Part shown: one piece after another, positions 35,521 to 59,239 of the stretch
Layout: every line of letters begins with the position of its first letter
Position numbering within the stretch: position 1 is the stretch's first letter
Assembly (NCBI GenBank): GCA_045612805.1
Contig: JAZKZR010000010.1
Span: forward strand, 67,136 to 131,135
Source of the DNA: Candidatus Enterousia sp.
GTDB lineage: Bacteria > Pseudomonadota > Alphaproteobacteria > Rs-D84
Direction of reading: 5' to 3'
Length of the DNA: 64,000 nt
Program-made: the position numbers and the translations under genes
Notes under the pieces: model-generated
What the model saw: only the letters and a program-made list of their open reading frames with translations
Database searches by the model: none
Told to the model about the DNA's origin: nothing

Positions 35521-36516
35521 TTAAACCACCTCGGTCACGGCGCGCAGTGAACCGTCGCGTGACAGTTGCACAACACGAATCTTTTGCTTCATTTCCGCAA
35601 TCAAATCCGTGCGGTTATATGCGGGTTGCGTGTGCAAAATCCTGTCGGCGAATGCGGCATAGGCGGCTTCGGCACTTTCCGCGTGAATCGTTGTATAAAA
35701 ATGTTCGTGCCCGGTCCCAAGCATTTCCCAAAGAACCGACGCATTATCCGTTGATATTTCGCCACCAATAATTACGTCCGGTGTCATACGAACAACCAAA
35801 TCAAGCAATCGCGCATAATTAAAATCATTTGTTTGCTCTGTTCGCGACAATACAAAATGCACATGATTTTTCTGTGGAACGCGAACTTCGCGCGCATCTT
35901 CGACGGTAATAACACGACTGTTTTGGTCAATAAGGGTCAACATATGATTCAAAAATGTTGTTTTACCCGTCGCGGTCGCACCGCTTATCAAAATCGGACT
36001 GCCGTCGTTTATTGCGGACATCAATCTGTCGTATGGGTCGTCGGGCCGATTCGTTTTTCGTGGTTTTACCTTCATCAATTTTTTACCCCGTTCCAGGTGG
36101 TATTCGCCGAACGAAGTTTCCGCCACGCCGCCACCACGTATATTTAGCGCAACACCGCCCGTTATATCGCGTTCGTCATATTGCACATTTGGCCCGGCAA
36201 TCGCACTGAATCGATGGTTGCCCGGCAAAGTCGCATAAACGACCGGGATCCCATGTATCGGATCAAACGGTCGTTCATAAATGTTTGCAATCGTATGAAT
36301 TAAATCGACAAGGTATTGCTTGCTAAGCACCGGGGCATCATACGCAACCCACGGCACACGCGCCCCATGCAGGCGCATCCACACTTCGCCCGCATGGTTT
36401 ATCGCGATTTCTTCGACGAAACTTGGCCGATAAAATTCCGATATAGGTTTCAATAAAGATTCTAATACAACATTTGTCATCAAATTCATTTTATCATAAA
36501 TCGCCACTTGAATCAA
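35521..36516 (-). CDS. Type IV secretion ATPase, VirB11/TrbB family
   Basis: 331 aa. Walker A ISGATATGKTT, the RVITVEDAREV motif, an Asp box and a His box. Size fits VirB11 rather than CpaF/PilB. Confidence 0.6.
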   Translation of the reverse strand: MIQVAIYDKMNLMTNVVLESLLKPISEFYRPSFVEEIAINHAGEVWMRLHGARVPWVAYDAPVLSKQYLVDLIHTIANIYERPFDPIHGIPVVYATLPGNHRFSAIAGPNVQYDERDITGGVALNIRGGGVAETSFGEYHLERGKKLMKVKPRKTNRPDDPYDRLMSAINDGSPILISGATATGKTTFLNHMLTLIDQNSRVITVEDAREVRVPQKNHVHFVLSRTEQTNDFNYARLLDLVVRMTPDVIIGGEISTDNASVLWEMLGTGHEHFYTTIHAESAEAAYAAFADRILHTQPAYNRTDLIAEMKQKIRVVQLSRDGSLRAVTEVV

Positions 36517-42853: not shown

Positions 42854-43102
42854 ATGACACATGAAGATGTTTGGCGCGCGATAGAGCGATTCGCAATGGA
42901 ACATGGAATGTCATGTTCGGGTCTGGCGCGGTGCAGTGGTTTAGACCCGACGACCTTTAATAAAAGCAAGCGTTGGACCAAGGAAGGTCAACCCCGTTGG
43001 CCATCCACCAACAGCATATCAAAGATTTTGTCGTCGACTGGGGCGTCAATCCAGGAATTTACCAAGTTTATTGATAATCCTGGGCCTGAACGTGCCGGAT
43101 GA
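42854..43102 (+). CDS. LexA/phage-repressor-like HTH DNA-binding protein lacking the S24 peptidase domain (82 aa)
   Basis: The pattern DVWRAIERFAMEHGMSCSGLARCSGLDPTTFNKSKRWTKEGQPRWPSTNSISKIL matches the N-terminal HTH of alphaproteobacterial S24-family repressors. The ORF ends right after the HTH. Confidence 0.55.
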   Translation: MTHEDVWRAIERFAMEHGMSCSGLARCSGLDPTTFNKSKRWTKEGQPRWPSTNSISKILSSTGASIQEFTKFIDNPGPERAG

Positions 43103-43205
43103 TGGCAAAATGTGGGCCTCAGAGCAGCCAAAACCGATACGCGCCTGCGCGTATCGGTTCCCCTTTTTTATAGACAGTTGAATTTTTGCGTATTATCATA
43201 AACCT

Positions 43206-43625
43206 ATGTTATCTGGATTCAAAATTTTTTCATCTGACCCCGTATGGCAACAGATTGTCACGGAATTTGGGGGTATGGTCACGACCGATTCGGTGTTGTG
43301 CGATGTGAATATGGACACGTTGAATTTGAAAACGCCAGTTTCGCCATCACTATTAAAATCATCAATTATTGCGACAACGGACAATACCGCGATTATCGAT
43401 TCTGTTTTTGGGGAACATGTTTCACTTTCACCCATACAATCACAAATCGTGACATTGCTTTATAAAACCGGCGGCATGTCCGCGGATGATTTAAAGGTTG
43501 CACTTGGGTATGCGCCGGATGCAACAACGCACAGTGTGGAAACCGCGATATACGAATTGCGCAAACTGTACGGTCATGACTTTATAAAAAACATAAACGG
43601 AATTTTCAAACTTGGGCGGATATAA
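43206..43625 (+). CDS. Hypothetical protein with C-terminal OmpR-type winged-helix-like segment
   Basis: The C-terminal ...LSPIQSQIVTLLYKTGG..SADDL...AIYELRKLYG resembles a trans_reg_C domain. Weak. Confidence 0.35.
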   Translation: MLSGFKIFSSDPVWQQIVTEFGGMVTTDSVLCDVNMDTLNLKTPVSPSLLKSSIIATTDNTAIIDSVFGEHVSLSPIQSQIVTLLYKTGGMSADDLKVALGYAPDATTHSVETAIYELRKLYGHDFIKNINGIFKLGRI

Positions 43626-44277
43626 AGTTTTTTCTTTTGATAAAATTCAAAGCACGCAAGATTATGCGTATGATATGATTGCAAATGGCACCGCGCGCGA
43701 TCACTGTGTTGTCACGGCACTGGCGCAATCCGCGGGACGCGGGCGTTATCGGCGTAAATGGGTGTCGCATCATGGAAATTTGTACGCAAGTTTTATATTC
43801 GATTCACCCGAACGCGATCCACGACTTTCGTACGCGGTGGCGGTCGCAATTGCGGAAACACTTATCACATTTGGAATACACCCAACAATAAAATGGCCAA
43901 ATGATATTTTAATTTCCGGGAAAAAAATATCGGGCGTTCTAATTGAATACGCGGGGCGATTCGTTATTGTCGGAATTGGAATAAATGTTCACACCAATCC
44001 AACGGTCGCGGAATACGAAACAACGCGCACCGATAAATATACGCGCGCGGATATCGCAGAAATTTTTTCCGCACTTACAAAAAATCTTGATAAATGGATG
44101 AACGCAAAATTCGATTCGGTGCGTGATGTGTGGATGAAACTTGCCATCGGAATAAATGCGCCGGTTAAATATCGCGGCGAAATTGTGGAACTGATTGGTA
44201 TAAACGATTCGGGGGCGTTGGTCGTACGACGGGGGTCGGAATACCTGTGGATTCACGGCGATGAAATAATGGTTTGA
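43612..44277 (+). CDS. birA: Biotin--[acetyl-CoA-carboxylase] ligase
   Basis: GRGRYRRKWVSHHGNLYASF (biotin-binding GRGRxGR motif), KWPNDIL, GVLIE. TTG start. No N-terminal HTH (group I BirA). Confidence 0.75.
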   Translation: MGGYKVFSFDKIQSTQDYAYDMIANGTARDHCVVTALAQSAGRGRYRRKWVSHHGNLYASFIFDSPERDPRLSYAVAVAIAETLITFGIHPTIKWPNDILISGKKISGVLIEYAGRFVIVGIGINVHTNPTVAEYETTRTDKYTRADIAEIFSALTKNLDKWMNAKFDSVRDVWMKLAIGINAPVKYRGEIVELIGINDSGALVVRRGSEYLWIHGDEIMV

Positions 44278-44438
44278 ACATCGCAGAAAACCGGTGTCGC
44301 AAACAATTGTCTTGACTTTTACATCGTTTTATGATACACTATTACTATCAACAGGAGAGATTATATGGTTCGCGCTTTTTAAGTGCGGATTTTTTTTATG
44401 CCACGCGATACGCGTGGCTTTTTACATGGGGAAAAATC

Positions 44439-44849
44439 ATGCAAATGGAAATAATAGAGGCGCACGATGAAACAACCACATTGGCGTATGCGGTCGCGCG
44501 AATCGTTTATGCGGAAACACTTGCAAAATCTTTGCGCGTCGTCGAAGCATTAACATCAATGATTTTTAACGCCGCGAATCACGACATAAAAAATATCAAA
44601 CGCATTATATCGAATTCTAGGATGTTCGAATCGCTATGCACAGAATCAACGCGTCATGAATTTTTATCTGTGGATGCGTCGCGTCGCGATTTTCAAATGT
44701 GCCTGCGCGTGGCGAAAACCATGTTGCACGGAAATTTGCCGGACACGTGTTGTCATGCAACAATGTTTCATCGTGCGGAATTCTTGCCGTCTTGGGCGGT
44801 TGCACGTGGATACATTTGCGACATTGATGGAATTTTATTTTACATATAA
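44439..44849 (+). CDS. Cell-wall hydrolase, SleB-like (possible phage-associated lysin)
   Basis: About 136 aa. ...VVEALTSMIFNAANHD... and C-terminal HATMFHRAEFLPSWA...GYICDIDGILFY resemble the SleB/CwlJ family. Pattern-level only. Confidence 0.45.
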   Translation: MQMEIIEAHDETTTLAYAVARIVYAETLAKSLRVVEALTSMIFNAANHDIKNIKRIISNSRMFESLCTESTRHEFLSVDASRRDFQMCLRVAKTMLHGNLPDTCCHATMFHRAEFLPSWAVARGYICDIDGILFYI

Positions 44850-44867
44850 TTTTTACACGGGGGCAAC

Positions 44868-45056
44868 ATGAGCAAATTTTTTCGTGGTGGATTCTTTGCG
44901 AATCGCCGAACACAAATAATGACCGCATGTGGAATTATGTCTGCGTTGTGTGCATACCTTGTTGGCGATTCGGATCTGTTTGCCACAATCCAGGCATTGA
45001 TCGCCGTTGGCGGTGTTTATCTGTTGCATAAAACAAATCAACAAAAAGGAAAATGA
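44868..45056 (+). CDS. Small membrane protein (62 aa)
   Basis: RBS acgggggcaacatg. One TM helix. Located between the hydrolase and the phage scaffold gene (holin-like position). Confidence 0.35.
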   Translation: MSKFFRGGFFANRRTQIMTACGIMSALCAYLVGDSDLFATIQALIAVGGVYLLHKTNQQKGK

Positions 45057-45057
45057 A

Positions 45058-45714
45058 ATGGAAAAAGTACCAGAAAAATTTTTAAACGAAGATGGAACAT
45101 TAAACAGTGACGCATTGATAAAATCATACAACGAACTTGAAAAAAAGATTGGCGGAATGATAACAGTGCCGGATGAAAAATCTGACGAATCGGTGCGAAA
45201 CCGCTTTATGCGCGCGATTGGTGTTCCCGAAAGCCCCGATGAATATCCACATAATGAATTGTTTGATGATGAAAATGTGCGCAAAGAATTTCATAAAATT
45301 GGTTTAACAAATTCGCAGGTTGAAAAAATTTATAACATTGCACAAGAATTTTTATCGCCAATCATATCTGAAATTTTTACGACACAACAAGAAGCAGATG
45401 CAATATCAAAATTAAAAAATTTTTTTGGTGGTGAAGAAAAAATGCATAATGCATTTGTTGCAATAAAATCATTTGGCGAAAGATTTTTACCCGTTGACGC
45501 GTTTAATGAATTATGCTCTACACCCCAAGGAATTCAAGGTGTTTACAAGATGATGCAATCAATGGAACCGCATGTAGAAACGGAAGGTAATGCACCGGAA
45601 AAATTATCTGAATCTGATTTGCGAGACATGATGCGCGATCCAAAATATTGGCGCGATCATGATGCAGAATACATTCGCAAAATTGAAAACGGTTTTAAAA
45701 AATTATATTCGTAA
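45058..45714 (+). CDS. Phage capsid assembly scaffolding protein (T7 gp9-like)
   Basis: RBS aaaaaggaaaatgaaatg. Acidic, helical, 218 aa. Immediately upstream of a T7-gp10-like capsid gene. Assignment is mainly by synteny. Confidence 0.45.
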   Translation: MEKVPEKFLNEDGTLNSDALIKSYNELEKKIGGMITVPDEKSDESVRNRFMRAIGVPESPDEYPHNELFDDENVRKEFHKIGLTNSQVEKIYNIAQEFLSPIISEIFTTQQEADAISKLKNFFGGEEKMHNAFVAIKSFGERFLPVDAFNELCSTPQGIQGVYKMMQSMEPHVETEGNAPEKLSESDLRDMMRDPKYWRDHDAEYIRKIENGFKKLYS

Positions 45715-45831
45715 TGAATTTTTTTTATAAAAATTCACTTTTCTTCTTTACTAATTTTTTTGTTTAATATAAAATAGAACTAAGAACAAAAGAAATTTGT
45801 TCTATCCAAAAAAAATAGAAAGGAGAGATGA

Positions 45832-46113
45832 ATGGCATTCACATTCTTGAAGACTGCGGCAAAGAAACCTGCTGCGAAAAAAACTGTTGCGGCTAAAAAG
45901 CCTGCGGCAAAGAAACCTGCTGCGAAAAAACCTGCGGCGAAAAAGCCGGCTGTGAAGAAAGTTGCGGCAAAGAAACCGGTTGCAAAAAAGACCGTTGCAA
46001 AGAAACCAGCGGCGAAAAAAGTTGCTGTGAAAAAAGTTGCGGCGAAAAAACCGGTTGCAAAAAAGACCGTTGCGAAAAAACCTTGCGCAAAAAAATGCGT
46101 TAAGAAAAAATAA
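45832..46113 (+). CDS. Histone H1-like lysine/alanine-rich DNA-binding protein (KKPAAKK repeats)
   Basis: 93 aa with about 16 tandem AAKKP(A/V) heptad-like repeats (codon-level repeats gcgaaaaaacctgc...). Strong RBS gaaaggagagatgaatg and its own terminator. Confidence 0.7.
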
Positions 46114-46127
46114 TTTTTCGCTAAATC

Positions 46128-46160
46128 TATAAAATGCCCGCAAGTGCGGGCATTTTTAAT
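46128..46160 (+). terminator. Rho-independent terminator after the H1-like gene
   Basis: aaaatgcccgcaagtgcgggcatttttaat. Confidence 0.75.
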
Positions 46161-46334
46161 TCGTAAAATTTTTCAGTCAGATTTGATCGGTCTGACTGAA
46201 TTTTTTTACTTGGATAATCCGGTATTCCGGACCCGTTTAATTTTGTTCTTTGGCGCATACGTGCATAACCAGAAAACAATTTTTGGTTCGGTGAATTTTT
46301 TCATCATGTATAACGTTTAACAAAAGGAATAATA

Positions 46335-47153
46335 ATGTCTGTTTCCATAGATCAAGTATTTGTGAAACAATTCGAAGCCGATGTCCATTTGGCTTATCAA
46401 CAGATGGGCACCAAATTGCGTTCAACCGTGCGCAGCAAATCCGGTGTTGTTGGCAAATCTACAACATTTCAAAAAATCGGTAAAGGCACCGCCAGTACAA
46501 AATCCCGTCATGGAATTGTGCCGGTTATGAATCTGAATCATGAACCTGTGGAATGCAATTTGCAAGATTACTATGCGGGTGATTGGGTTGATGCGTTGGA
46601 TGAATTAAAGGTCAATATTGATGAGCGCCGTGTCGTTGCGTCCGCGGGTGCGTATGCATTGGGGCGTAAAACTGATGAATTGATTATCAATGCGATGACC
46701 GCAACAACCCAGAATTCTGGTGATTATTCGACAGGCCTGACCAAGGCGATTGTTTTGGGTGCATTGGAAAAATTAAATGAAAATGATGTACCGGATGATG
46801 GTCGCCGTTTTGCGGTTGTTGGTGTAAAACAATGGAACGAATTGCTTGCCATTGATGAATTTTCATCCGCGGAATATGTTGGGGATGATTTGCCATTTAT
46901 TAACGGTGGTGAAGTCAAAAGATGGCTTGGCATTACATGGTTGATGCACAACGGTTTGCCGTTGTCTTCGTCAACGCATCGCGATTGCTTTATCTATCAT
47001 GCATCTTGCATTGGTCATGCGTGTGGGCAAGAAGTGAAAACCGATATTTCGTGGCACGGTGAACGTGCGGCGCACTTTATTAGCAACAGTATGTCCCAAG
47101 GCGCGGTGCTGATTGATAACAGTGGAATTGTCCGTCTTAAGTGCGGCGAATAA
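46335..47153 (+). CDS. Phage major capsid protein (T7 gp10-like)
   Basis: 272 aa. Segment-by-segment resemblance to T7 gp10A recalled from memory: QFEADVHLAYQQ...RSKSG..GKSTTFQKIG versus FGGEVLTAFARTS...SISSGKSAQFPVLG. The C-terminal GQEVKTDIS...AVLIDNSGIV resembles T7 AVGTVKLRD...AAGAVVF. RBS aaaggaataataatg. Confidence 0.65.
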   Translation: MSVSIDQVFVKQFEADVHLAYQQMGTKLRSTVRSKSGVVGKSTTFQKIGKGTASTKSRHGIVPVMNLNHEPVECNLQDYYAGDWVDALDELKVNIDERRVVASAGAYALGRKTDELIINAMTATTQNSGDYSTGLTKAIVLGALEKLNENDVPDDGRRFAVVGVKQWNELLAIDEFSSAEYVGDDLPFINGGEVKRWLGITWLMHNGLPLSSSTHRDCFIYHASCIGHACGQEVKTDISWHGERAAHFISNSMSQGAVLIDNSGIVRLKCGE

Positions 47154-47177
47154 CATCAATAACCAAGAGGAAAAACA

Positions 47178-47411
47178 ATGGCTTTTCAAAACAAAAATTT
47201 GTCGGTAATTGCATATGCAAATGGGTTCACGTTGTGGCACTATGTTGAAAGCGCAACATTGGCAACAATCACGGCAAGCGGTTATTTCGATGCGGTGGCA
47301 ACACTTATGAACAATGGTGATATTGTTATTATCAATGGTTCGGACAAAACATCGATAAAGAAAATCGCGGTTAGTGATGCCGGCGTTGTGACGACCGCCA
47401 CATTGGACTAA
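47178..47411 (+). CDS. Small phage structural-module protein (77 aa), function unknown
   Basis: RBS agaggaaaaacaatg. Located between the capsid and gp11-like genes. Confidence 0.4.
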   Translation: MAFQNKNLSVIAYANGFTLWHYVESATLATITASGYFDAVATLMNNGDIVIINGSDKTSIKKIAVSDAGVVTTATLD

Positions 47412-47488
47412 GGTTGATTATTGTTTGCAAAAATATAGGGCCGATTCTTTTCGGCCCTTTTTTCAATTTTTTAGAATAGGGGAAAATA

Positions 47489-48007
47489 ATGCTAACGAAA
47501 ATAGATTTGTGTTCTATGGCATTGTTGAAATTGGGTGAAAATCCGATTCAATCTTTGTCAGATGATACCGCGGCGGCAAAACTGGGACGAACGCTTGTTG
47601 ACTTTGTCATAGACACATTATTGGCAATGCATCCGTGGCGGTTTGCGTGTCGCACATATAATATCATACGTAACGAAAACGGAGATTTTATTATACCATC
47701 GGATGTGTTAAGGGTTATAAAAACCAACGGTAAAATTATCGGAAATCAAATTATATCCAATACAGATACCTTAAACCTGGTGGCCATAGTTCGTGTGACA
47801 CCGGATGTTTTCCCAAGTTATTTCGCATCACTTGTCGCGACAAAACTTGCGGTGGAATTTTGTATGCCGCTTATTTCCGATCAAACGGTATTCAGAACAT
47901 TGGTTGCACTTTATGAAAACGAATTACAAACCGCAAAATTTATAGACAGCACAACATCGGTGAATACGGGGATAGAAAATTTTTCATTGATAGATAGTCG
48001 TTTTTAA
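47489..48007 (+). CDS. Phage tail tubular protein A (T7 gp11-like)
   Basis: 172 aa. N-terminal ...LCSMALLKLGENPIQSLSDDTAAAKLGRTL...HPWRF parallels T7 gp11 ...[34 protein letters not shown]...RGWTF, recalled from memory. Confidence 0.55.
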   Translation: MLTKIDLCSMALLKLGENPIQSLSDDTAAAKLGRTLVDFVIDTLLAMHPWRFACRTYNIIRNENGDFIIPSDVLRVIKTNGKIIGNQIISNTDTLNLVAIVRVTPDVFPSYFASLVATKLAVEFCMPLISDQTVFRTLVALYENELQTAKFIDSTTSVNTGIENFSLIDSRF

Positions 48008-48028
48008 CAAGCCAAAGGAGATTTTAAT

Positions 48029-49732
48029 ATGGGAAATTTTATAAAAACCGAGAAATCTTTTACTAATGGTGAAGTTTCAATAAACTTTTTTGAAAACGAT
48101 GATATCCAAGGCCTTAGGTTTATGGAAAATTTTGATGTGTGTGCGGGTGGTGGCCTTGTGCGGCGGCCTGGTCTAAAAAAATCCACACAATTGATTTCTG
48201 ATGCAAGATTGGTATCTTTTTCATTATCGGAATCCCAAGAATATATTTTGGCAATGATGAACGGACGCATAAGAATTTATGCGAACAATACTTTCGTGCA
48301 AGATGTATTAACACCATGGCCAAGTTCCGTGATTCCGAAATTACAATACACGCAACGTTTTGGCACAATGATATTTGTGCATCCAGATTACGCGCCAATG
48401 GTTTTATATTACGAAAATGGGCTTTTCAAAATTAAAAATTTCACTTTTTCAAAATCGCCGGATACCGGGAATTTGCAAATACCCTTTATGCGATTCGAAG
48501 ATTCCGAAGATGTCACAATAACCATAACAAATTCGGGTGGCATCACACATTTCATAGCAAGTGAAGATTTTTGGACCCAGAATAATGTTGGTGGGCATTT
48601 GTTTGCAATTGGAAAAAGTTGGTTGGTAAATTCGTATGTAAGTGCCACAGATATAACGGTAATATGCAACGGCACATATACAATACCGAATGACCCAATT
48701 TCAGATTGGCAAGAAGCCGCGTTTAGTCCACGTCGCGGTTGGCCATCATCGATAACTTTTCACCAAGATAGGTTGGTTTTTGGTGGTGCTAAATCATGGC
48801 CGGGTGGAATATGGTTGTCGCATGTTGGTGGGCACAGAAATTTTGACCCTGGGACCGGATTGGATGACGAAGCAATATTTTTCACACTATTGTCAGACCA
48901 CAGACAGCATGTTTGCACACTGGTCAGCAGTGATAATTTACAGATACTTACATCCGAAGGGGAATGGGCGGTTTCCAACAAACCACTTACCCCAGAATCA
49001 GTCGATATAAAAACGCATACATCGATTGGCAGCCCCGCGGACAGATATCTTGCGCCACAACAAATCGAAGGCAAAACTATATTCGTCGCAAAAAATAAAG
49101 AAATCCGACAACTGTGTCTTGATAGTTTGGGCGAAAATTACGATGCCAACAATTTATGTGCATTTGCCGAACATTTGATAACGAACCCCGTCGATATTTC
49201 TTACAATAAAAACAATAAAAAACTTTTTGTTGTTATGTCTGATGGAAATATGGCGGTATTGAATTATGACACATCGCACGGAATATCTGCTTGGGGACGA
49301 TACACAACGGATGGAAAGTTTACATCAACCACAACGTACGATGACAAAACATTTGTCGTTGTAAAACGTGGTGACGATTTTTTCCTTGAATATTTTGATG
49401 ATTCAGAATTCGTTGATGCAGATAGTCACACATACACCGCGACGGCATACGGATTACCACTTTTAACATCGGGACATAATGCAAAATATATCAGAATCAC
49501 AAAAATAACAGTTCGCGTTTATAATACCAAGACATTATTCATAAACGATGAACGGGTGGTTTTGCCAAACGATGTTTATTCCGATGATTCGGTCGGGTTC
49601 AGTGGTGATGCATCTATAAATGTATTGGGAACAAGTGCAGATTTAATTGATGCGCCATGGAAAATTTCTACGACAGACAATTTGCCATTAAAAATATTGT
49701 CGGTGACAATATACGGAAGATATCAAATATAA
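48029..49732 (+). CDS. Phage tail tubular protein B (T7 gp12-like), shortened
   Basis: 567 aa. ITFHQDRLVFGG...LQILTSEGEWAVSNKPLTPESVDIKT resembles T7 gp12 VFFFRNRLGFLSG...LLIWSDEAQFVLTASGTLTSKSVELNLTT, recalled from memory. Confidence 0.5.
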   Translation: MGNFIKTEKSFTNGEVSINFFENDDIQGLRFMENFDVCAGGGLVRRPGLKKSTQLISDARLVSFSLSESQEYILAMMNGRIRIYANNTFVQDVLTPWPSSVIPKLQYTQRFGTMIFVHPDYAPMVLYYENGLFKIKNFTFSKSPDTGNLQIPFMRFEDSEDVTITITNSGGITHFIASEDFWTQNNVGGHLFAIGKSWLVNSYVSATDITVICNGTYTIPNDPISDWQEAAFSPRRGWPSSITFHQDRLVFGGAKSWPGGIWLSHVGGHRNFDPGTGLDDEAIFFTLLSDHRQHVCTLVSSDNLQILTSEGEWAVSNKPLTPESVDIKTHTSIGSPADRYLAPQQIEGKTIFVAKNKEIRQLCLDSLGENYDANNLCAFAEHLITNPVDISYNKNNKKLFVVMSDGNMAVLNYDTSHGISAWGRYTTDGKFTSTTTYDDKTFVVVKRGDDFFLEYFDDSEFVDADSHTYTATAYGLPLLTSGHNAKYIRITKITVRVYNTKTLFINDERVVLPNDVYSDDSVGFSGDASINVLGTSADLIDAPWKISTTDNLPLKILSVTIYGRYQI

Positions 49733-49751
49733 ACGAACAAGAGGTATAAAA

Positions 49752-50096
49752 ATGGGACAAATTATTTCAGATGTTACAGATATTTTGAATTATAAAGAAA
49801 ATAAAAATGCGGCCGAAAAAAACAAAAAAAAGATTTTATCAGATATTGCATCGGACGAAGTAGAAAAACAAAACATTGTGAAAAAAGTGCTTGCCATGCA
49901 ACGCGCAAAATACGGCGCATCCGGCATGTCGGCCAATGGAATAACGGAAAAAAATGTTATGCACAGGTTGCAACAGGAAATCGAAACCCCGTATGACAAT
50001 AAAATAAAAACAAACATGGCAAAATTAAATAGTATCGGCGTAAAAAAGAAAAATATGCTGACATCAATTTTGGAACACCTGGATAAACTGGTTTGA
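49752..50096 (+). CDS. Hypothetical phage protein (114 aa); position suggests terminase small subunit
   Basis: RBS aagaggtataaaaatg. Lys-rich and helical. Sits immediately upstream of the terminase large-subunit fragment. Confidence 0.3.
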   Translation: MGQIISDVTDILNYKENKNAAEKNKKKILSDIASDEVEKQNIVKKVLAMQRAKYGASGMSANGITEKNVMHRLQQEIETPYDNKIKTNMAKLNSIGVKKKNMLTSILEHLDKLV

Positions 50097-50695
50097 AAAC
50101 CATGAATCAATACAATGAATTTTTGGATTCTTGGAATCATGTATTGGGATATGAAACGCCGGCGCATCACCGTGATATGATGAATTTTTTAACAAGTGTA
50201 ATCACCGGCGATTCGCACCGGGGGTTGCTTATGGCGTTCCGTCATTCAGGCAAATCAACAATTGTCGGAATTTTTGCCGCGTGTGTATTATATCGGCGAC
50301 CCGAAACACGGATTTTGATTTTATCCGCGGAAACACATTTGGCAACAAGGATGGTTATGCATATTCGCAATGTTTTGGAAAATCATCCTTGGTGTGCGGA
50401 TATGATTCCAAAAAATAAACGCGAATGGGCGGAAAATAAAATAACCATAAACCGCCCCATCGGAATTCGTGAACCATCCGTTGTTTGCCAAGGCGTTTAT
50501 GGCAACATCACCGGTATGCGTGCGGATTTAATAATATGTGACGATGTCGAAGTTCCAAATACTTGTAATACAATAAAAAAACGGGCCGGTCTGCGCGACA
50601 GATTGCGCGAACTGGATTTTATCCTGTCACCAAATGGAACGATGATTTATATTGGAACGCCACACACACTGGATACAATATACCGAATATCTTAG
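50093..50695 (+). pseudogene. Terminase large subunit, N-terminal ATPase fragment (T7 gp19-like), terminated after motif C
   Basis: Walker A LLMAFRHSGKST, Walker B LIICDDVE, motif C IYIGTP, then a TAG stop. The nuclease domain is absent here and found at 54064-54927. Confidence 0.6.
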
Positions 50696-51345
50696 GCCGC
50701 ATCATGCGACGGCATAGAACTAAGCAACCCGTGTAAACGGTGCAACATCTTTTTGCCTTCATCACCAAACATTGGTAAATACGTTTCATATTCCGGCATG
50801 TCTACCTGCAGATTTGCGCGTGCGCGTTCGGTAATGGGTTTAGATAATACATCGTTCGCGTTGTCCCACATACGATAAGCCGTGGCCGCGCGAACAATAT
50901 CATCAAATTTTCGTAATGCTTCGGGATTGTTGAACAATGCGTTTTTGGACCGCGACACCCAATCGTCACCGAATTTTTTAATGATCGGATTCGCCATGAA
51001 TCGATTTATGCCATCAAGATCTGGGTTAAACGAATCAATTGCCGAAATCAATTGCTGTAATTCATCATCCGCCATGTCTGATGCATCCGCAGATTCATTC
51101 ATCATGCCACCATACGGCAACAATTCGCGCGCAATAGAATCCATTGGTGTTGTGCCGTCACGTAAATTTTTAATATGTTGAATCAACATTTTTCCGGTGG
51201 GTAAATCTTGCAATTCGTGCAAAATCTCATCGGTTGCTTCGTCAACAAAAACACGATTCACTGCGCGCCATCCACCGACGATAACATGCGCCTGGCGATA
51301 AAGATTCAAAAGTTTTTGTGCAATAACACTTGCCCTTGCTTTCAT
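50692..51345 (-). CDS. Hypothetical protein (217 aa) within the block inserted in the terminase gene
   Basis: ORF on the opposite strand to the phage structural genes. No domain recognised. Confidence 0.4.
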   Translation of the reverse strand: MKARASVIAQKLLNLYRQAHVIVGGWRAVNRVFVDEATDEILHELQDLPTGKMLIQHIKNLRDGTTPMDSIARELLPYGGMMNESADASDMADDELQQLISAIDSFNPDLDGINRFMANPIIKKFGDDWVSRSKNALFNNPEALRKFDDIVRAATAYRMWDNANDVLSKPITERARANLQVDMPEYETYLPMFGDEGKKMLHRLHGLLSSMPSHDAA

Positions 51346-51371
51346 CCCGATTATTCCCCCGCGGTGGTGTT

Positions 51372-52382
51372 TTATTCGGCCAAAATCATTATAACCTTGT
51401 GCATTGTCGGCGCAGAAATCTTTTCATCGGGCGAAACCATTTGACCATAAATTTTGCCCTTGGAATCTTTACGCACAACGGCGATATTGGCGGTTGTTTT
51501 TTCCTCGGACTTTAGCGAATTAAATTCCGCATCAACGAAAACAGCCAAATCACCCGGAACAACGTTTGCCTTTGCATCCGCAAAAACATATGATTTTTCC
51601 GGTATAAATCCGCCCAAGCGTTTAGAATTAGGAATGACCGCATATACATTACGACGACCTTCAAGATTTGCCGGTGCGGCAATCATTTTTGATTCAGACC
51701 GTACAAAACTCATAACCTTGCCATCGGGCCGCCCAAACACAGGAATCAATTTACGCCGCGCATTATCATAAAGTTTTGCACCGTACAAATGCCCATGCGT
51801 TTCATCAAAATCATTGGACGAATCACCTGGTACCAAAACGGCCTGAACACGTTCTTTGACCTTGTTCATCTGTTTGGTAAGTTCGCCAGATTTATAAAGT
51901 TCGGCAATTTTATCAAACAAACTTTCGACAGAATGTGCAAAAGATTTTGCCAAAGGTTCAATTTCGTTTTTATAAACCTCGCGTTGACCAACCTCTATCT
52001 TATGATACACCGAAAGTGTCATGCCGGCATCTTTGGCGGCCTGGGCAATTGTTTTGCCAGATTGTTGACGTATTTTGCGCAATCCGGTACCAAACACCTT
52101 AAGACCACCGTCTTCGTTATCATTCATACGACGGGTAATTTCATTTTGCCATTTTGACGCAACCTCGTCAGTGTCTTTGATGAAAATATCGGACAATTTG
52201 CACCCCAAGATGTTGCAGATATTCAATAACTGTTTCTGATTAAGGCGACGAACACCCTTTTCAATCTTGGAAACAGCGGACAGCGATAAATTCGAACGCC
52301 GTGCCAGTTCGGTCATTTTCATACCAGTGGCAAGACGTATATTACGAATATTATTCGGAAAAATGATTTCTTCTTGGGCCAT
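51372..52382 (-). CDS. XRE-family transcriptional regulator with tandem HTH domains and a C-terminal LexA/CI-like beta domain
   Basis: Start MAQEEIIF with canonical RBS aaggag(6)atg. Two HTH_XRE-like segments (IRNIRLATGMKMTELARRSNLSLSAVSKIEKG; LRKIRQQSGKTIAQAAKDAGMTLSVYHKIEVG). The C-terminal domain is CI/S24-like but has no clear Ser-Lys dyad. Confidence 0.55.
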   Translation of the reverse strand: MAQEEIIFPNNIRNIRLATGMKMTELARRSNLSLSAVSKIEKGVRRLNQKQLLNICNILGCKLSDIFIKDTDEVASKWQNEITRRMNDNEDGGLKVFGTGLRKIRQQSGKTIAQAAKDAGMTLSVYHKIEVGQREVYKNEIEPLAKSFAHSVESLFDKIAELYKSGELTKQMNKVKERVQAVLVPGDSSNDFDETHGHLYGAKLYDNARRKLIPVFGRPDGKVMSFVRSESKMIAAPANLEGRRNVYAVIPNSKRLGGFIPEKSYVFADAKANVVPGDLAVFVDAEFNSLKSEEKTTANIAVVRKDSKGKIYGQMVSPDEKISAPTMHKVIMILAE

Positions 52383-52447
52383 AAAAAACTCCTTGGGTAA
52401 ATCTTGACAAAATGATAAGCGATTTTTTGAATTATGGCAAGGAAAAA

Positions 52448-52540
52448 GTGATAGAGTGTTAGTGGTTAGTCGTTTCTGGAATAAATTCGCAATTACAAGA
52501 TAATTCCAGAAATTACTAACCACTAACACTAGCCACTATT
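52448..52540. repeat. Palindromic intergenic element family 2 copy (with nested ttctggaat...attccagaa inverted repeat)
   Basis: gagtgttagtggttagtcg ... ctaaccactaacactagccacta arms flank a tctggaataaattcgcaattacaagataattccaga core. Lies between the regulator start and the dnaB stop. Confidence 0.7.
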
Positions 52541-54089
52541 ATTCGAATTCATCTGGAATTTCATCAATATCAATCGACATTGGGGCGTCGACCGGTTCGG
52601 CAACTGGCGGCATATCCGGTGCAAATTCTACACCGCGTCCCGCCATTTCGCCAAGGTTGTCGAACAAACTATATTCCGCCAAGAATGCGACCGTGACCGT
52701 ATCCGTTCGGCCGTGACGGTTCTTGCCAATGATAATGTCCGCCTTGCCCTTGGCCTTTTCAAGCCGGTTTTGCCACGAATCGACGGACTTTTCACTTGGC
52801 GTATTTGAAAGTCGCCGTGACGGGTCACGATTTTGCAGATAGTATTCTTCACGATATGTGAACATAACAATGTCGGCGTCTTGTTCAATTGAACCTGATT
52901 CACGCAAATCGGCAAGTTGTGGCCGTTTATCATCACGATTTTCAACACTGCGCGACAATTGCGACAGGGCGATAACCGGGACATTAAATTCCTTGGCCAT
53001 CATTTTAAGGCCACGCGTGATTTCGGACAATTCTTGAACACGATTGTCGCTGCGTTTCCCGCCCGGCAAAGTCAGTAATTGCAAATAATCGATAACGATA
53101 AGTGCAATGCCATTATATTTCCGCGCAAGACGCCGCACCCGCGTGCGAATCATCGGCAAAGACATGCCAGGCGTATCATCAATGAACAACGGAATCCGCC
53201 CGATTGCATCTGAAAACTGGGCCATTTTAAGGAAATCTTCATCCGTTAGTGAACCTTCACGCATTGCGGAAGACGGAATTCGTGCCTGGGAAGCCAAAAC
53301 GCGCGCCGCCAATTCAGACGCACCCATTTCAAGACTAAAAAACGCGACCGCGCCCTTATATTGTTCGTTCGCGCGACTGGAATAAATCGCATTCGCGGCA
53401 TTGAACGCGATATTCATGGCAAGCGTGGTTTTACCCATACCCGGACGACCCGCGATAATAAGCAAATTTGATTTATGCAAACCACTTATTGCGCGGTCCA
53501 AATCGGTAAGTCCCGTGGTAAGTCCCGAAAGTTTTCCGTCCGCCTTGTATGCAATTTCCGCCTCACTCAGGGCATCTTTTAACGCGTTTGCAATCGGCAC
53601 GACATCGCGTGACGCATCGCCGGTCATTGCCAAATTGAACAATTTTTGTTCGGCGGATTCAATCTGTGACGACACCGGGTTATCAAGGTCTTCGACAAAC
53701 GCGGCATCGGTGACCGATTGCCCAAAATCGATAAGTTCGCGCCGCACCGCGTTTTCATGAACGATTCGACCGTATTGTTCGACATTTACAACGGTTGCGC
53801 CGGCACTTGCCAACTGGGTCAAATATTCAACGCCACCAACAGATTCCAATGTCCCTTGCTGGTCCAAATAGTTTTTTGCGGTGATTATATCAAACGGAAT
53901 TCCGGCGGCAAATTGGCGCAGGGCAAGTTTATAAATTTCTTGGTGCGCGGGATGCGAAAAATCTTCCGGTCGCAAAAATTCGGAAATTTTTTCAAGTGCC
54001 CGATTCTTCATTAAAACCGCGGCAAGAACGGCCTGTTCGGCCTCTAAATTCGTTGGCAAAGTTTTGGGAGTAAAGTCCATGTCAAACAT
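52539..54089 (-). CDS. dnaB: Replicative DNA helicase DnaB
   Basis: 516 aa. N-terminal domain LEAEQAVLAAVLM. Walker A GRPGMGKTT, SLEMG, Walker B LIVIDYLQL, arginine finger region IIGKNRHG. Acidic C-terminal tail. Confidence 0.85.
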   Translation of the reverse strand: MFDMDFTPKTLPTNLEAEQAVLAAVLMKNRALEKISEFLRPEDFSHPAHQEIYKLALRQFAAGIPFDIITAKNYLDQQGTLESVGGVEYLTQLASAGATVVNVEQYGRIVHENAVRRELIDFGQSVTDAAFVEDLDNPVSSQIESAEQKLFNLAMTGDASRDVVPIANALKDALSEAEIAYKADGKLSGLTTGLTDLDRAISGLHKSNLLIIAGRPGMGKTTLAMNIAFNAANAIYSSRANEQYKGAVAFFSLEMGASELAARVLASQARIPSSAMREGSLTDEDFLKMAQFSDAIGRIPLFIDDTPGMSLPMIRTRVRRLARKYNGIALIVIDYLQLLTLPGGKRSDNRVQELSEITRGLKMMAKEFNVPVIALSQLSRSVENRDDKRPQLADLRESGSIEQDADIVMFTYREEYYLQNRDPSRRLSNTPSEKSVDSWQNRLEKAKGKADIIIGKNRHGRTDTVTVAFLAEYSLFDNLGEMAGRGVEFAPDMPPVAEPVDAPMSIDIDEIPDEFE

Positions 54090-54927
54090 AGTATACGAAA
54101 AAAATGTTTTTTCAACGCCTTTTTTATCGGGTTATTCGGAATTGAAAATTCCAATAATTGACAGTGACGGAAACCCGGCGTGGCCGGCGGTTTTCCCAAT
54201 TGAAAAAATCGATAAAATCCGCAAAACCGTGGGCGAACGACATTTTTCGGCACAAATGATGTTGCAATATATCGCGCCCGATAAAATCCGCCTTGACCCG
54301 GGGGGAATAAAATTATATGACGCGGAATTTGATCCGCACGGGTGCCGAATTGACGAAATGCCAATAACCGGTGCGACAATATATTGGGATCCGTCGGGTG
54401 GGCGACGAAATTCGGATAACAGTGTTTGCGTGATTATTTATCGTGATGACCGAACGCATCGCGCGTTTATTCACGATATGATTTATTTGGTTGTCCCAGA
54501 CGAAGTTGAATATCCACTTGCATACCAATGTGAAAAGGTTTTGTCGTTTGTGCGCGCACACCGGCAAAGAACCCTTGCACTTGAAACAAACGGAATTGGT
54601 GCGGCGTTGCCGGAAATTATGCGTGAAACAATTGCGCGCGCGGGCTATGAAATACAAATCCGCCCGATAAGCAACAGCCACCGCAAAGAAGACCGAATCT
54701 TGGACGCAATCGAACCGTTGCTTACGACCGGGCGACTTTACGCGCATCGGCGCATAACGCAAACCCCGTTTATCTCGGAAATGTTGGCATGGACACCGAT
54801 TGGTGGCGGCGAACATGACGACGGATTGGACGCGGTTGCGGGGGCAATTTTATGTTCGCCCAGCCCCGTGCGTCCCATTGGAACAAACGTTCGCCCATTT
54901 ATCGCGAACACAGAATTCAAACTTTAA
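54064..54927 (+). pseudogene. Terminase large subunit, C-terminal nuclease-domain fragment (T7 gp19-like)
   Basis: IYWDPSGG...D.SVCVIIY (RNase-H-like nuclease Asp motif) and DDGLDAVAGAI (terminal Asp motif), parallel to T7 gp19 AGIDSQ... and NEALDCFVYALAA. In-frame continuation of the 50093-50695 fragment is impossible, because about 3.4 kb of opposite-strand genes intervene. Confidence 0.6.
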
Positions 54928-54942
54928 CCAAAAGGAAGAAAA

Positions 54943-56169
54943 ATGAAATATGACTTACAACAAATGTATTCACATGCATTGGCTCTGCGCGAACCATGGA
55001 TTAAACGTTGGTCTGATGCGCGCCGTTACACTATGCCTACAACCGATGAAGAAATCGCGACACTGTTCGATGGAACAGCGGCGGACGCGGCAGATAATTT
55101 GGCGGCGTGTATGTATTCATTACTAACCCCGCCGGAATCATTGTGGTTGAACCTTATTCCGGAATCCGAAGATTCCCCGGATGCGGCAACGGCGACAATG
55201 GCATTACGTTCGAACCTAAACGAATCAAATTTTTATACAACGGTGCACCAATGTTATCTTGATTTGGTGACGGTTGGAACGGCGTGTCTGTTTATGTCCG
55301 AATCACCAATTGGCGCGGCAAGTGCGTTTAACTTTACCGCGATTCCGATGACGGATATTGCGATTTTGCCGAACGCGGTGTTTCACACGGCAACCATGAC
55401 CGCCCAAGAAGTTGCGCGCCGTTATCCCGAATGGACACCACCACACGCAATCCTTGACGCGATGAAGCAAAATCCGGAATACCAATTGCGCCTTGTTCAG
55501 GCATTGGTTGACACGGAATTCACCGCATGGATAGATGTCGGTGGCAATCTTGAAAACAACATTGTGTCGCGTGGCACATTTGAAACGAACCCATACATCA
55601 TATTCCGCTGGGCCGTGTCCAGTGGTGAACTGTACGGCCGCGGGCCGGTGCTGCGCGCGTTGCCCGATATCAAAACCGCGAACAAGGTCGTCGAACTTGT
55701 CCTAAAAAACGCAACCATCGCGGTCAGTGGCATATGGCAGGCCGACGATGATGGCGTCATAAACCTTGGCAACATAAACCTTACCCCGGGTGCAATTATA
55801 CCCAAAGCGGTGGGCAGTACCGGCCTTACACCACTTGCAACGGGTGCAAATTTTGATGTGTCGCAAATAATTCTAAAAGACCTGCGCGAACGCATCCGCC
55901 ACACAATGCTTGCGGACAGAATCGGCACACTTTCGGACAAAGAAATGACCGCAACGGAAATACTTGCGCGGAATGCGGACATGTTGCGTATATTGGGCGC
56001 GACATATGGACGATTGCTGCACGAATTTATCCGGCCGCTTTGCGACCGCGGATTGCAAATCCTTGCACGGCGCGGGGTAATCGACAAAATATCACTGCAC
56101 AGTGACGCGGAATTAAAATACATTGCCCCGATTGCACAAATGGTCGCGGAAAACGGAACATTGATATAG
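54943..56169 (+). CDS. Phage portal/head-to-tail connector protein (T7 gp8-like), shortened
   Basis: 408 aa. AACMYSLLTPPESLWLNLIPESE / YLDLVTVGTACLFMSE parallel T7 gp8 LASKLMLALFPMQTWMRLTISEYE / LKQLVVAGNVLLYLPE, recalled from memory. RBS aaaggaagaaaaatg. Confidence 0.55.
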   Translation: MKYDLQQMYSHALALREPWIKRWSDARRYTMPTTDEEIATLFDGTAADAADNLAACMYSLLTPPESLWLNLIPESEDSPDAATATMALRSNLNESNFYTTVHQCYLDLVTVGTACLFMSESPIGAASAFNFTAIPMTDIAILPNAVFHTATMTAQEVARRYPEWTPPHAILDAMKQNPEYQLRLVQALVDTEFTAWIDVGGNLENNIVSRGTFETNPYIIFRWAVSSGELYGRGPVLRALPDIKTANKVVELVLKNATIAVSGIWQADDDGVINLGNINLTPGAIIPKAVGSTGLTPLATGANFDVSQIILKDLRERIRHTMLADRIGTLSDKEMTATEILARNADMLRILGATYGRLLHEFIRPLCDRGLQILARRGVIDKISLHSDAELKYIAPIAQMVAENGTLI

Positions 56170-57887: not shown

Positions 57888-58541
57888 TTATTTCTCTTCG
57901 ACCAAGACCCGTTGCACATTGAACACAAACACCAACGCCGGATCAATACCATCTTTTAATGCCCCGTGAACATCGCCTTCGCGGACATTGCCGATACTGT
58001 TTACCCAATCATCATCGCCCAAATCAAGATACATTGTTCCACGCGTTATCTTTGGACTTTCCGACATGTCATTTGGTTTATACCATGTTTTAAGTTCATA
58101 ATCAACCCGCCAATAATTACTTGACGCCGGGCGATAGATTTCATTAAACACCGTCACCGTCCGCCGCGCGCCATTTGCAACCAAACCTTCTATTTCCGGC
58201 AATTCATTTTGCCGCCAATAATCAAACGCCGCCGTCCCCGACATTCGCGCCAGTGTTGACCGCCGCGTTGTCCGTCGCGCAATGTTTTCTTCGTCCGGCA
58301 CGGCATAAAAGTATTCCGTCACATATTTTTGAACAAGCCAATCGCGCAACTTGCGTTTTCCAACCTCGGCCCAGGAATGCGGCATGCCGGGCAAATCGTT
58401 AGATTGAATACTGGTGCGTAAAAAACGCGGTTCAACGGCAAACCGTTCGGACGTATCATAAATCGACGCGGCAACATAAATCGCGCCAAAGACCATAATC
58501 ATGGTCGCAAATCCGAACAAAAATCCAAAAAGTTTCTTCAT
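57888..58541 (-). CDS. Bitopic membrane protein, VirB8/DotI-like (T4SS inner-membrane component), paralog 1
   Basis: 217 aa with an N-terminal TM helix and a periplasmic domain. The C-terminal DPALVFVFNVQ resembles the VirB8 NPxG-LVVTSYQ end motif. Weaker than paralog 2. Confidence 0.4.
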   Translation of the reverse strand: MKKLFGFLFGFATMIMVFGAIYVAASIYDTSERFAVEPRFLRTSIQSNDLPGMPHSWAEVGKRKLRDWLVQKYVTEYFYAVPDEENIARRTTRRSTLARMSGTAAFDYWRQNELPEIEGLVANGARRTVTVFNEIYRPASSNYWRVDYELKTWYKPNDMSESPKITRGTMYLDLGDDDWVNSIGNVREGDVHGALKDGIDPALVFVFNVQRVLVEEK

Positions 58542-59239
58542 TACTGTTCCCTGAACGCGTTAAATTCCGTCACATAAAACCCAAGTGTTTGCGGATACCG
58601 TTCCACATCACGCGCGATTTTTACATACGCAATCACATCAAAATCGCCGTTCAAATTCGACCGCACCGACGTCCGCACGACCCAGGTTCCGCCATCTTTG
58701 GTTATTTCACCACTGGGCATAACACTAATTTTTTTCGTATCAACATACCAACGTTGCCCCATAGATTCATACGACCGATACATCGGCAAAACCTTTTCGG
58801 TAAAGGAATGAAACATATTGTCGCCCGCCATACAATATAAATCGCAACCGGCATCCGATTCAAAAGTGTTGCTTATGCGGTCGGCACAATCGGCACCCCG
58901 ATTACACGTCGCCCAATTTTTTGCATTCAATGTCGGGTTATCGGAAATAGTGAACCATTTTTTCGTAAAAATCCCGGCCAATGCACGCTGGGCGGAATCA
59001 TAATACGGCACAACGATATTCGGCCGAACCTGGCCCACCAATTGCCAATTCCCGCGCATACCATCAACATAAATCACATACGGACTAACGGTGCGACTGT
59101 TTTGCAACCACGGTATCGCAACACAGCATGCGATGGTCAAAAAGAACGCAACCATCACCCACACACCAAACGTGCGGGAAATCGCAATCCGTTTCCCTGC
59201 GGGAAATGCGGGCGTATCAAAATCTTCTGGGTAATCCAA
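58541..59239 (-). CDS. Bitopic membrane protein, VirB8-like (T4SS component), paralog 2
   Basis: 232 aa. Cytoplasmic N-terminus, a TM helix, then PYVIYVDGMRG (compare VirB8 PVYLWIRPDGT), GTWVVRTSVR (compare TWTATVRYE) and C-terminal YPQTLGFYVTEF (compare NPGGLVVTSY). Comparisons are to A. tumefaciens VirB8 recalled from memory. Confidence 0.5.
   Translation of the reverse strand: MDYPEDFDTPAFPAGKRIAISRTFGVWVMVAFFLTIACCVAIPWLQNSRTVSPYVIYVDGMRGNWQLVGQVRPNIVVPYYDSAQRALAGIFTKKWFTISDNPTLNAKNWATCNRGADCADRISNTFESDAGCDLYCMAGDNMFHSFTEKVLPMYRSYESMGQRWYVDTKKISVMPSGEITKDGGTWVVRTSVRSNLNGDFDVIAYVKIARDVERYPQTLGFYVTEFNAFREQ

Follow-up and report, generated by a model that had tools for sequence, protein, structure and literature searches.

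A 64,000-nucleotide stretch of the genome of Candidatus Enterousia sp. (GenBank assembly GCA_045612805.1, contig JAZKZR010000010.1, positions 67,136 to 131,135 of the forward strand), hereafter the window, carries between the scaffold and major capsid genes of a phage-derived cluster a small gene for a lysine-rich repeat protein, referred to here as the K-rich gene. Comparison of orthologous sequences indicates that this gene is real, is translated in the called frame under purifying selection, and is lineage-specific and universally retained in its clade. Its product is read here, tentatively and with a confidence a little short of even, as a moron-like, lineage-specific polycation that would bind and compact DNA, most likely that of the cell's nucleoid. 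The type of protein is a known one; what is new is its minimal form, its conserved termini, its alphaproteobacterial host and its fixation in a domesticated podophage head cluster.

A translated gene in a putatively insulated unit

The K-rich gene and its signals are as follows (nt, nucleotides; aa, amino acids).

45747..45775 (+), predicted sigma70-like promoter found by consensus scan, with -35 TTTACT, a 17-nt spacer and -10 TAAAAT
45783..45803 (+), palindrome AGAACAAA-N5-TTTGTTCT, lying shortly after the -10 and a candidate for an operator or for a stem in the 5' untranslated region, with invariant arms and a variable centre in 26 orthologues
45820..45827 (+), Shine-Dalgarno (SD) sequence AAGGAGAG, read from the sequence and conserved in the alignment, ending 4 nt before the ATG
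45832..46113 (+), K-rich open reading frame (ORF), ATG start, 93 aa
45854..46095 (+), tandem repeat array inside the coding sequence, resolved by Tandem Repeats Finder into a 15-nt unit (x15.9) nested in a 75-nt unit (x3.2)
46131..46157 (+), predicted intrinsic terminator T1, a GC-rich hairpin (46131-46156) and then a U-run; -17.6 kcal/mol, z -5.3
46172..46207 (+), predicted intrinsic terminator T2, a 12-bp hairpin TTCAGTCAGAT...GTCTGACTGAA (46172-46200) and then T7, found by terminator scan; -16.8 kcal/mol, z -5.5

Between the window and locus L006, which has an orthologue of the same length, 10/10 substitutions are at third codon positions and all are synonymous, and in the comparison with L009, again of the same length, 31/36 substitutions are at third positions, the codon changes being 28 synonymous and 4 non-synonymous. 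This third-position bias is far above chance, and it bears out the histone-like repeat gene that a first-pass annotation of the window had called in this frame. The ATG, SD, N-terminus and stop are retained in all of the orthologues examined and every insertion or deletion is in frame; the other possible start, an ATG at 45828, lies out of frame and is not conserved.

It is hardly credible, given this pattern, that the ORF does not encode a functional protein and is instead the by-product of a repetitive leader or an attenuator ORF of the capsid operon, or that the real gene is an ORF of RFF repeats on the opposite strand. Low-complexity repeats do hold several frames open, and terminator-like hairpins and a structured capsid leader lie downstream, but the excess of synonymous over non-synonymous changes, the concentration of substitutions at sense third positions and the conservation of ATG, SD, N-terminus and stop across 154 loci, with indels all in frame, argue the other way. 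The antisense ORF (45802..46143) does exist, and was rejected as coding sequence on the codon-position pattern between orthologues: sense third positions are antisense first positions, so that the antisense protein is not conserved, and the earlier preference for the called strand is upheld. A lysine-codon attenuator or leader peptide of the capsid operon was likewise ruled out, the amino-acid sequence being under purifying selection and the ORF running to 38-164 aa. On these sequence comparisons the non-coding and antisense readings are effectively refuted.

Exact look-ups in a collection of 15 billion proteins found the neighbouring scaffold and capsid proteins, and found neither the five K-rich orthologues that were looked up nor the antisense product; the absence probably reflects the way in which the collection handles low-complexity proteins. 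The NCBI locus tags J5714_00180 (scaffold) and J5714_00190 (capsid) would leave room for one annotated gene between them.

Upstream signals were read from an alignment of 26 species-level orthologous regions, and downstream hairpins were assessed with RNAalifold over 28 loci. Little or no variation is seen in the promoter blocks CTTTACTA and ATAAAAT across the aligned regions, and the -35 block CTTTACT is also present in the sister lineage L131, where it lies ahead of a different gene. Each of 149 clade loci has one copy of the palindrome and no more, over some 6 kb on each side of the capsid gene, and the outgroup loci have none; the window likewise contains a single copy, and the RNA hairpin of the palindrome has a predicted energy of -6.6 kcal/mol (z -3.1). 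Two identities for the palindrome were considered and rejected. For a tie to the CI-like regulator p82, encoded upstream, neither a similar inverted repeat near p82 nor a further copy elsewhere in the window or the loci was found, and a LexA box is a poor description of GAAC-N11-GTTC, which misfits both the alphaproteobacterial direct repeat GTTC-N7-GTTC and the Cheo box.

The strong ribosome-binding site recorded at first pass is the SD sequence listed above, and the terminator recorded with it is T1, to which T2 and a promoter can now be added; the gene span given earlier, to 46160, takes in the coding sequence and T1 and leaves T2 outside. Both terminator hairpins were recovered by RNAalifold, with double-sided compensatory changes in 19/25 predicted pairs: the T1 stem is held by compensatory changes over the 28 loci, and in T2 such double-sided changes affect 8 of the 11 predicted pairs. 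The consensus scan found no sigma70-like site between the K-rich gene and the capsid gene. Since it has its own promoter, a private palindrome, an SD and two terminators with covariation, the K-rich gene is a putatively autonomous, insulated unit, promoter and terminator activity being predicted, and the tandem terminators and operator-like palindrome point to such a unit over a co-transcribed component of the head.

The repeat protein and its relatives in composition

The protein of the window consists of a head, MAFTFLK, some 16 pentamers of the form (A/V)(A/V)KKP, a number given at first pass and matched by the 15.9 copies of the 15-nt unit, and a C-terminal CAKKCVKKK. It contains 36 lysines, 26 alanines, 11 valines, 9 prolines and no acidic residues, with a net charge of +36 and an isoelectric point of 11.0. 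An AlphaFold2 model in single-sequence mode had a pTM of 0.12 and zero secondary structure; taken as evidence on the fold, this result indicates none, fits disorder and is weak. Composition, with lysine at 37%, alanine at 31%, valine at 13% and proline at 11%, and modelling together suggest that the protein is a small intrinsically disordered polycation. The 64-kb window encodes no second protein of this type.

The anatomy of the protein was compared in 68 species. Length varies from 38 to 164 aa with a median of 105.5, lysine makes up 34-42% of each orthologue, and lysine, alanine, valine and proline together account for 93% of residues. Aromatic residues all fall within the first 8 positions. 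The N-terminus is MAFTFLK in 42 orthologues, with MVFGLFK, MAFLFKR and MSLFKK among the variants, and at the other end 64/68 have 1-3 cysteines in the last 14 residues (CAKKC, CAKC, VCKKK); two of the remaining four have an N-terminal cysteine instead and two have none. The cysteine tail appears to be derived and the N-terminal patch ancestral, because deep lineages are without the cysteines yet keep the patch. That the DNA repeats would be prone to length variation had been anticipated, and the range of lengths agrees, the orthologues of L007 and L008 differing by exactly one 25-aa (75-nt) unit. The natural 38-164-aa series is a ready-made experiment on charge versus function.

The Pfam HC2 model (PF07382) matches the protein at 60.6 bits (E 2.9e-16), above its gathering threshold of 40, with 88/194 positions of the hidden Markov model matched. 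Of the controls, three composition-preserving shuffles gave no match and the reversed sequence scored 30.7 bits (E 4e-7), so that what the model recognises is the pentamer rhythm. Scores against two NCBIfam models, histone_lik_HC2 (NF038052; 46.2 bits) and the Burkholderia/Bordetella H1-like family of BpH1 type (NF038053; 41.1 bits), fell below the cut-off of 135 and the equivalog cut-off of 80 respectively, and a Pfam scan gave only HC2 and a sub-threshold Extensin_1, with no Linker_histone globular domain. The likeness to H1 tails, Hc1/Hc2 and BpH1 drawn by the first-pass annotation therefore holds for pentamer composition and fails as homology, given the score of the reversed sequence and the NCBIfam cut-offs so widely missed. 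The K-rich protein is treated here as one that may work like an Hc2/H1-tail polycation, and homology is not claimed.

In a protein database search these repeats turned up as the tails of unrelated proteins, with SWIB, MetJ, topoisomerase I, L29 and RodZ among them; about orthologues the search was uninformative, being swamped by compositional matches. DNA matches in an Erwinia jumbo phage were rejected as relatives, the likeness being compositional only and the context not shared. The phage in question, pEa_SNUABM_13 (L161, 161972-162637), encodes a 221-aa hypothetical protein with N-terminal AKKPAAKK repeats (73.6% DNA identity over 112 nt), so that proteins resembling the H1 tail are indeed encoded by genuine phages.

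Distribution and origin

The gene was looked for in related genomes and phages, as had been advised at first pass, counting only those clade loci with enough sequence upstream of the capsid gene. It was present in 75/75 genome loci, 14/14 IMG/VR loci and 65/65 metagenome loci, a total of 154/154, and also in the deep lineages L164, L166, L169 and L189, whose capsid proteins are 75-79% identical to that of the window. Promoter, palindrome and SD are retained in L164 and L199, which were read directly; in L169 and L189 the palindrome and SD are visible in the in-frame translation upstream of the start; and the start MAF(S/T)FLK is kept in all of the deep lineages.

The sole exception is the pair L131 and L162, which form the earliest branch of the domesticated clade in a neighbour-joining tree of the capsid. 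Synteny and the -35 block are retained there and the gene in the slot differs (L131:2121-2687; L162:1-200), encoding a very hydrophobic, membrane-type protein of 188 aa with no Pfam match. This protein may be a superinfection-exclusion or lysis-type cargo. Among 27 prophage-like relatives with T7 gene order, in which the capsid is 61-66% identical, no gene was found between scaffold and capsid, only a non-coding gap of about 300 nt, which agrees with the earlier remark that T7-like phages have nothing at this point. The simplest history suggested by these sequences is that the scaffold-capsid gap, with its promoter, became a cargo slot and that the K-rich gene was a single old gain, retained since.

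The carrier itself appears to be old. The gene order trmA, p82, birA, lysis genes, scaffold, K-rich gene, capsid, tail, terN (the ATPase part of the large terminase), dnaB block is the same in all genome loci, and the module (42854-56169), assessed over loci L001-L130 and L163-L241, lies at one chromosomal site with all of its genes intact in every Candidatus Enterousia / Rs-D84 genome sampled. Over 78 species, the window's own excluded, the capsid has a median identity of 83.5% and a minimum of 81%, at full length and with no stops; the medians for terN and p82 are 74.4% and 89.9%, as against 66.7% for BirA and 57.2% for TrmA. Capsid and tail tubular protein A (tubeA) are full-length in 78/78 and terN in 74/74. 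The surrounding 'phage' is thus, on genomic evidence, best described as a domesticated, vertically inherited, chromosomally fixed remnant of a temperate podophage; it is judged not to be mobile because synteny is conserved clade-wide, capsid identity is high and the repressor has lost its peptidase domain. The first-pass annotation had regarded the K-rich gene either as cargo of a phage element or as an independent insertion. The carrier is in fact a rearranged module fixed in the chromosome and syntenic with trmA, birA and dnaB clade-wide, and, because the gene is fixed throughout the clade in that module, a recent independent insertion has to be discarded.

Candidatus Enterousia belongs to the order Rs-D84 and has genomes of 0.75-1.0 Mb (PMC12306168), and a text search of that genomics paper for phage, capsid and gene transfer returned none. 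Genes for the capsid were found in 502 GTDB species genomes. Of these 502, the best 80 are all Candidatus Enterousia or metagenome-assembled genomes of gut Alphaproteobacteria, from rumen, horse, chicken and human, and include one closed chromosome of 958,618 bp (OZ007020.1). As a guide to distant relatives the capsid homologue search was uninformative, the matches listed being close clade members only. That the capsid is conserved above housekeeping proteins in genomes of about 1 Mb suggests an unrecognised domesticated podophage system in abundant bacteria of the rumen and gut, and the surrounding module is perhaps more important, and more surprising, than the K-rich gene.

Possible function of the K-rich protein

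Hc2 is a DNA-binding protein whose length varies in steps of repeat units, and so is BpH1 (PMC2848022); the KPAA peptides of AlgP also bind DNA (PMC9239181). Hc2, BpH1 and the tails of AlgP and PhaF are the analogues from which binding and compaction of DNA may be expected of the K-rich protein. With KK pairs spaced at five residues, its flexible chain would bind polyanions, DNA above all, attaching to the phosphate backbone irrespective of sequence, and the KK pairs would neutralise charge and bridge duplexes, leading to compaction; the number of pentamers would set the charge per molecule and would drift through slippage or unequal recombination of the 15- and 75-nt units. The substrate, we infer, would be the cell's own chromosome rather than DNA within a capsid, the protein being a nucleoid-associated protein that the lineage acquired via the phage remnant. 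This is favoured by the autonomous, doubly terminated unit with its private palindrome, by a slot of moron type that holds another cargo in the sister lineage, and by the cellular-type genes interleaved with the module. Given this interleaving and the synteny of the entire neighbourhood, the position of the gene argues only weakly for a function in the head.

Several considerations weigh against the nucleoid as substrate. The gene lies on the same strand as, and between, two head-assembly genes. In the prophage-like relative L148 a promoter-like TTGACC-N18-TGTAAT upstream of the capsid leader marks the apparent ancestral position of the capsid promoter, and the K-rich gene, standing behind that position, could therefore be expressed jointly with the head genes as a result of read-through or antitermination. 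The conserved N-terminal patch, MAF(T/S)FLK, suggests a specific protein contact that plain coating of the nucleoid would not need. The resemblance to HC2 is silent on shared ancestry or function, because the reversed sequence also matches, and for every member of the family the nucleoid reading draws on sequence and analogy.

The closest analogues are Hc2 (HctB) of Chlamydia and the Hc2-like or BpH1 proteins of Bordetella, Burkholderia and Herminiimonas, in which, as here, nearly the entire protein consists of pentamers with two basic residues and three drawn from alanine, valine, threonine and proline. In those proteins the pentamers are nested in longer elements, of which the 75-nt unit is the counterpart here, and in-frame duplication or deletion gives length variants (PMC2848022). 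The K-rich protein differs in being shorter (median 105 aa and minimum 38, against 165-237 for Hc2), in having lysine only as its basic residue, in its MAFxFLK head and cysteine-containing KKK tail, which have no counterpart in Hc2, and in being found in an alphaproteobacterium, embedded in a phage-derived cluster. The C-terminal tail of H1 and the KPAA/AAKP tails of AlgP and PhaF are also rich in lysine, alanine and proline, disordered and polycationic, and such peptides bind DNA (PMC9239181), but the K-rich protein is the tail alone, with neither the winged-helix domain of H1 nor the structured N-terminal domain of AlgP and PhaF. Hc2, BpH1, Hq1 and the AlgP tails are known as binders of DNA or other polyanions; here there is a bare tail with a conserved head of seven residues.

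In genetic terms the unit resembles the morons of HK97, HK022 and lambda, lying between genes that are adjacent in relatives, with its own predicted promoter and terminators and with different cargo in the slot of a sister lineage. The classic moron pattern is reportedly that described by Hendrix and colleagues in HK97 and HK022. The differences are that the carrier here is a fixed, vertically inherited module and that the K-rich unit is universal in it, not sporadic. Should the product be a nucleoid protein, it would be a clean example of a phage remnant giving a chromatin protein to a minimal genome.

The main rival, possible but doubtful, is the idea that the protein is a protamine-like partner of a phage-derived particle, produced along with the head proteins, brought in either by its hydrophobic patch at the N-terminus or by electrostatic attraction to the acidic scaffold, and neutralising or condensing packaged DNA or compacting the host chromosome for packaging. 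The scaffold carries a net charge of -13 against the +36 of the K-rich protein, and the N-terminal motif is conserved clade-wide, the deep lineages L164, L169 and L189 included. To the strand and position of the gene and the probable ancestral capsid promoter ahead of it may be added the C-terminal cysteines, which recall protamines cross-linked by disulfides or zinc, and the make-up of the module, which is without the large internal core proteins and the tail fibre of T7-like phages, tail tubular protein B (tubeB) being followed by a 114-aa protein and then by terminase. Particles are probably still made, because the module genes are intact and conserved in 78 species, and the K-rich gene and capsid may share a promoter, because the scan found none between them. 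Against all this, two conserved tandem terminators before the capsid gene speak of insulation and not co-expression, the palindrome is private to the K-rich gene, the sister lineage and all of the prophage-like relatives assemble the same head genes without a K-rich protein, and the deep lineages have no C-terminal cysteine. We know, moreover, of no tailed phage that packages an H1-like repeat protein, and one in this particle would be the first H1-like condenser of DNA in a tailed-phage-type capsid known to us. The DNA-condensing proteins of virions, such as the internal proteins of T4, adenovirus protein VII and mu, and the protamines, are comparably small and highly basic and are encoded among head genes, the terminal cysteines again recalling protamines, but the K-rich protein is at most a putative component of particles, its module has no prohead protease and its relatives assemble without it.

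A more elaborate form of this idea, which we consider unlikely, is that the module is a podovirus-type (BPP-1/T7-like) gene transfer agent (GTA) or similar domesticated particle system, universal in Candidatus Enterousia, in which the K-rich protein serves as a lineage-specific 'protamine' condensing the DNA loaded by the split terminase; if so, a histone-like protein would have been invented for a domesticated virus particle. The module on its own, whatever the role of the K-rich protein, may be regarded from its gene content and conservation as a candidate podovirus-type GTA-like system. Like RcGTA and BaGTA it has head, tail, terminase and lysis genes that are chromosomally fixed, vertically inherited and under purifying selection clade-wide, with a truncated CI-like repressor; it differs from them in its podovirus (T7/BPP-1) ancestry, its split large terminase and the lack of a tail fibre. 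To our knowledge no podovirus-type GTA has been described.

There is a slender chance that the protein binds or organises some other cellular polyanion, such as polyphosphate granules, RNA or ribosomes, and not DNA. The KPAA tail of AlgP localises to and spaces polyphosphate granules (PMC9239181), PhaF acts on polyhydroxyalkanoate granules, AKKP tails are fused elsewhere to ribosomal protein L29, and a disordered chain of charge +36 will bind any polyanion. The specificity of AlgP and PhaF comes, however, from a structured N-terminal domain, where the K-rich protein has only seven non-repeat residues, and its neighbourhood holds no polyphosphate- or polyhydroxyalkanoate-related gene.

A role as a 'disruptin'-like lysis accessory, permeabilising the outer membrane after holin and endolysin have acted, in place of spanins, is distinctly improbable: the lysis cassette has endolysin-like and holin-like genes and no recognisable spanin, the T7-like podophage phiKT disrupts the outer membrane with the cationic peptide gp28 (bioRxiv 10.1101/515445), and a hydrophobic N-terminal patch does precede a polycation here, but the protein, rich in proline and predicted to be unstructured, has no amphipathic character and carries the evenly spaced KK pentamers of Hc2 type that are typical of DNA binders, and its gene, with a promoter and terminators of its own, stands apart from the lysis genes, the scaffold gene lying in between.

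The capsid leader

Between T2 and the capsid gene lies a second conserved element.

46208..46274 (+), two-hairpin leader of the capsid gene, GGAYAAYC-[hairpin]-GGMCCC ... NNNGG-[hairpin]-CAYAA-CCNNN

It is placed 47-68 nt ahead of the capsid ATG, and both of its stems covary (e.g. UGG/CCA, TTCGG/CCGAA, TCCGG/CCGGA). The element is shared by the AT-rich Enterousia clade, L131 and the GC-rich prophage-like relatives, having been found upstream of the capsid genes in L131:2700-2790, L136, L137, L139-L144, L148, L155 and L157, and at many loci it is followed by a terminator-like hairpin just before the SD. A search of the flanking structured regions against Rfam 15 gave no family match. The TGGCGCA-N-TGCAT within it was considered as a sigma54 site and rejected, the spacing varying by 3-9 nt and the bases covarying as a hairpin. 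On this covariation the leader is a candidate new cis-regulatory RNA, an attenuator or antiterminator, of alphaproteobacterial podophage capsid genes.

Genes of the surrounding module

The other genes of the module, in order along the window, are the following.

42854..43102 (+), p82, an 82-aa CI/LexA-type helix-turn-helix (HTH) protein that has lost the S24 peptidase (self-cleavage) domain, which is present in the prophage-like L148:436-1068 (-)
43206..43625 (+), 139-aa protein overlapping the start of birA, with a faint match to an OmpR/QseB-type winged-helix DNA-binding domain (E 0.008)
44331..44849 (+), endolysin-like gene, phrog_938 endolysin, E 2e-6
44868..45056 (+), holin-like gene, 62 aa, two hydrophobic segments, assigned on sequence features only
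45055..45714 (+), scaffold protein gene (T7 gp9-like), Pfam Phage_T7_Capsid, E 1.9e-10
46335..47153 (+), major capsid protein gene, Pfam Phage_capsid_2, E 6e-76; phrog_3437
47178..50695 (+), sm77 (77 aa, phrog_18004), tail tubular proteins A and B, 114-aa basic protein and the ATPase part of the terminase, by profile matches
50093..50695 (+), terN, ATPase part of the split large terminase, 200 aa
50692..54089 (-), three genes between the terminase halves: a 217-aa protein without assigned function, a double-HTH regulator and the DnaB-type helicase dnaB
54064..54927 (+), nuclease part of the split large terminase, 287 aa
54943..56169 (+), T7-type portal, downstream of the nuclease part

The true start of the scaffold gene is the ATG at 45055 and not the TTG at 45007, and it is the 218-aa ATG form that public protein sets hold. 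Upstream of it lie the 62-aa holin-like and the endolysin-like gene, which together make up the lysis cassette (44331..45056, +), and then birA, the gene for the 139-aa protein, which could be an activator of the module, and p82. The most conserved gene of the neighbourhood is p82, with 476 members in one 90% cluster. The gene set is T7/BPP-1-like but rearranged, the portal standing behind the split terminase, and cellular-type genes are interleaved with it, birA upstream and dnaB inside the terminase. In L148, on a GC-rich contig, the order is CI-like repressor with S24 peptidase, portal, Bbp19-like protein, scaffold, capsid and tail tube.

The split of the terminase is common to all clade loci that reach that far, the sister lineage L131 included, and both halves appear functional, given the median identity of 74% for terN. 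At some distance the region is flanked by a VirB11/T2SSE-type ATPase (35521-36516, -) and a VirB8-like protein (58541-59239, -), which together suggest a type IV secretion system in this reduced genome.

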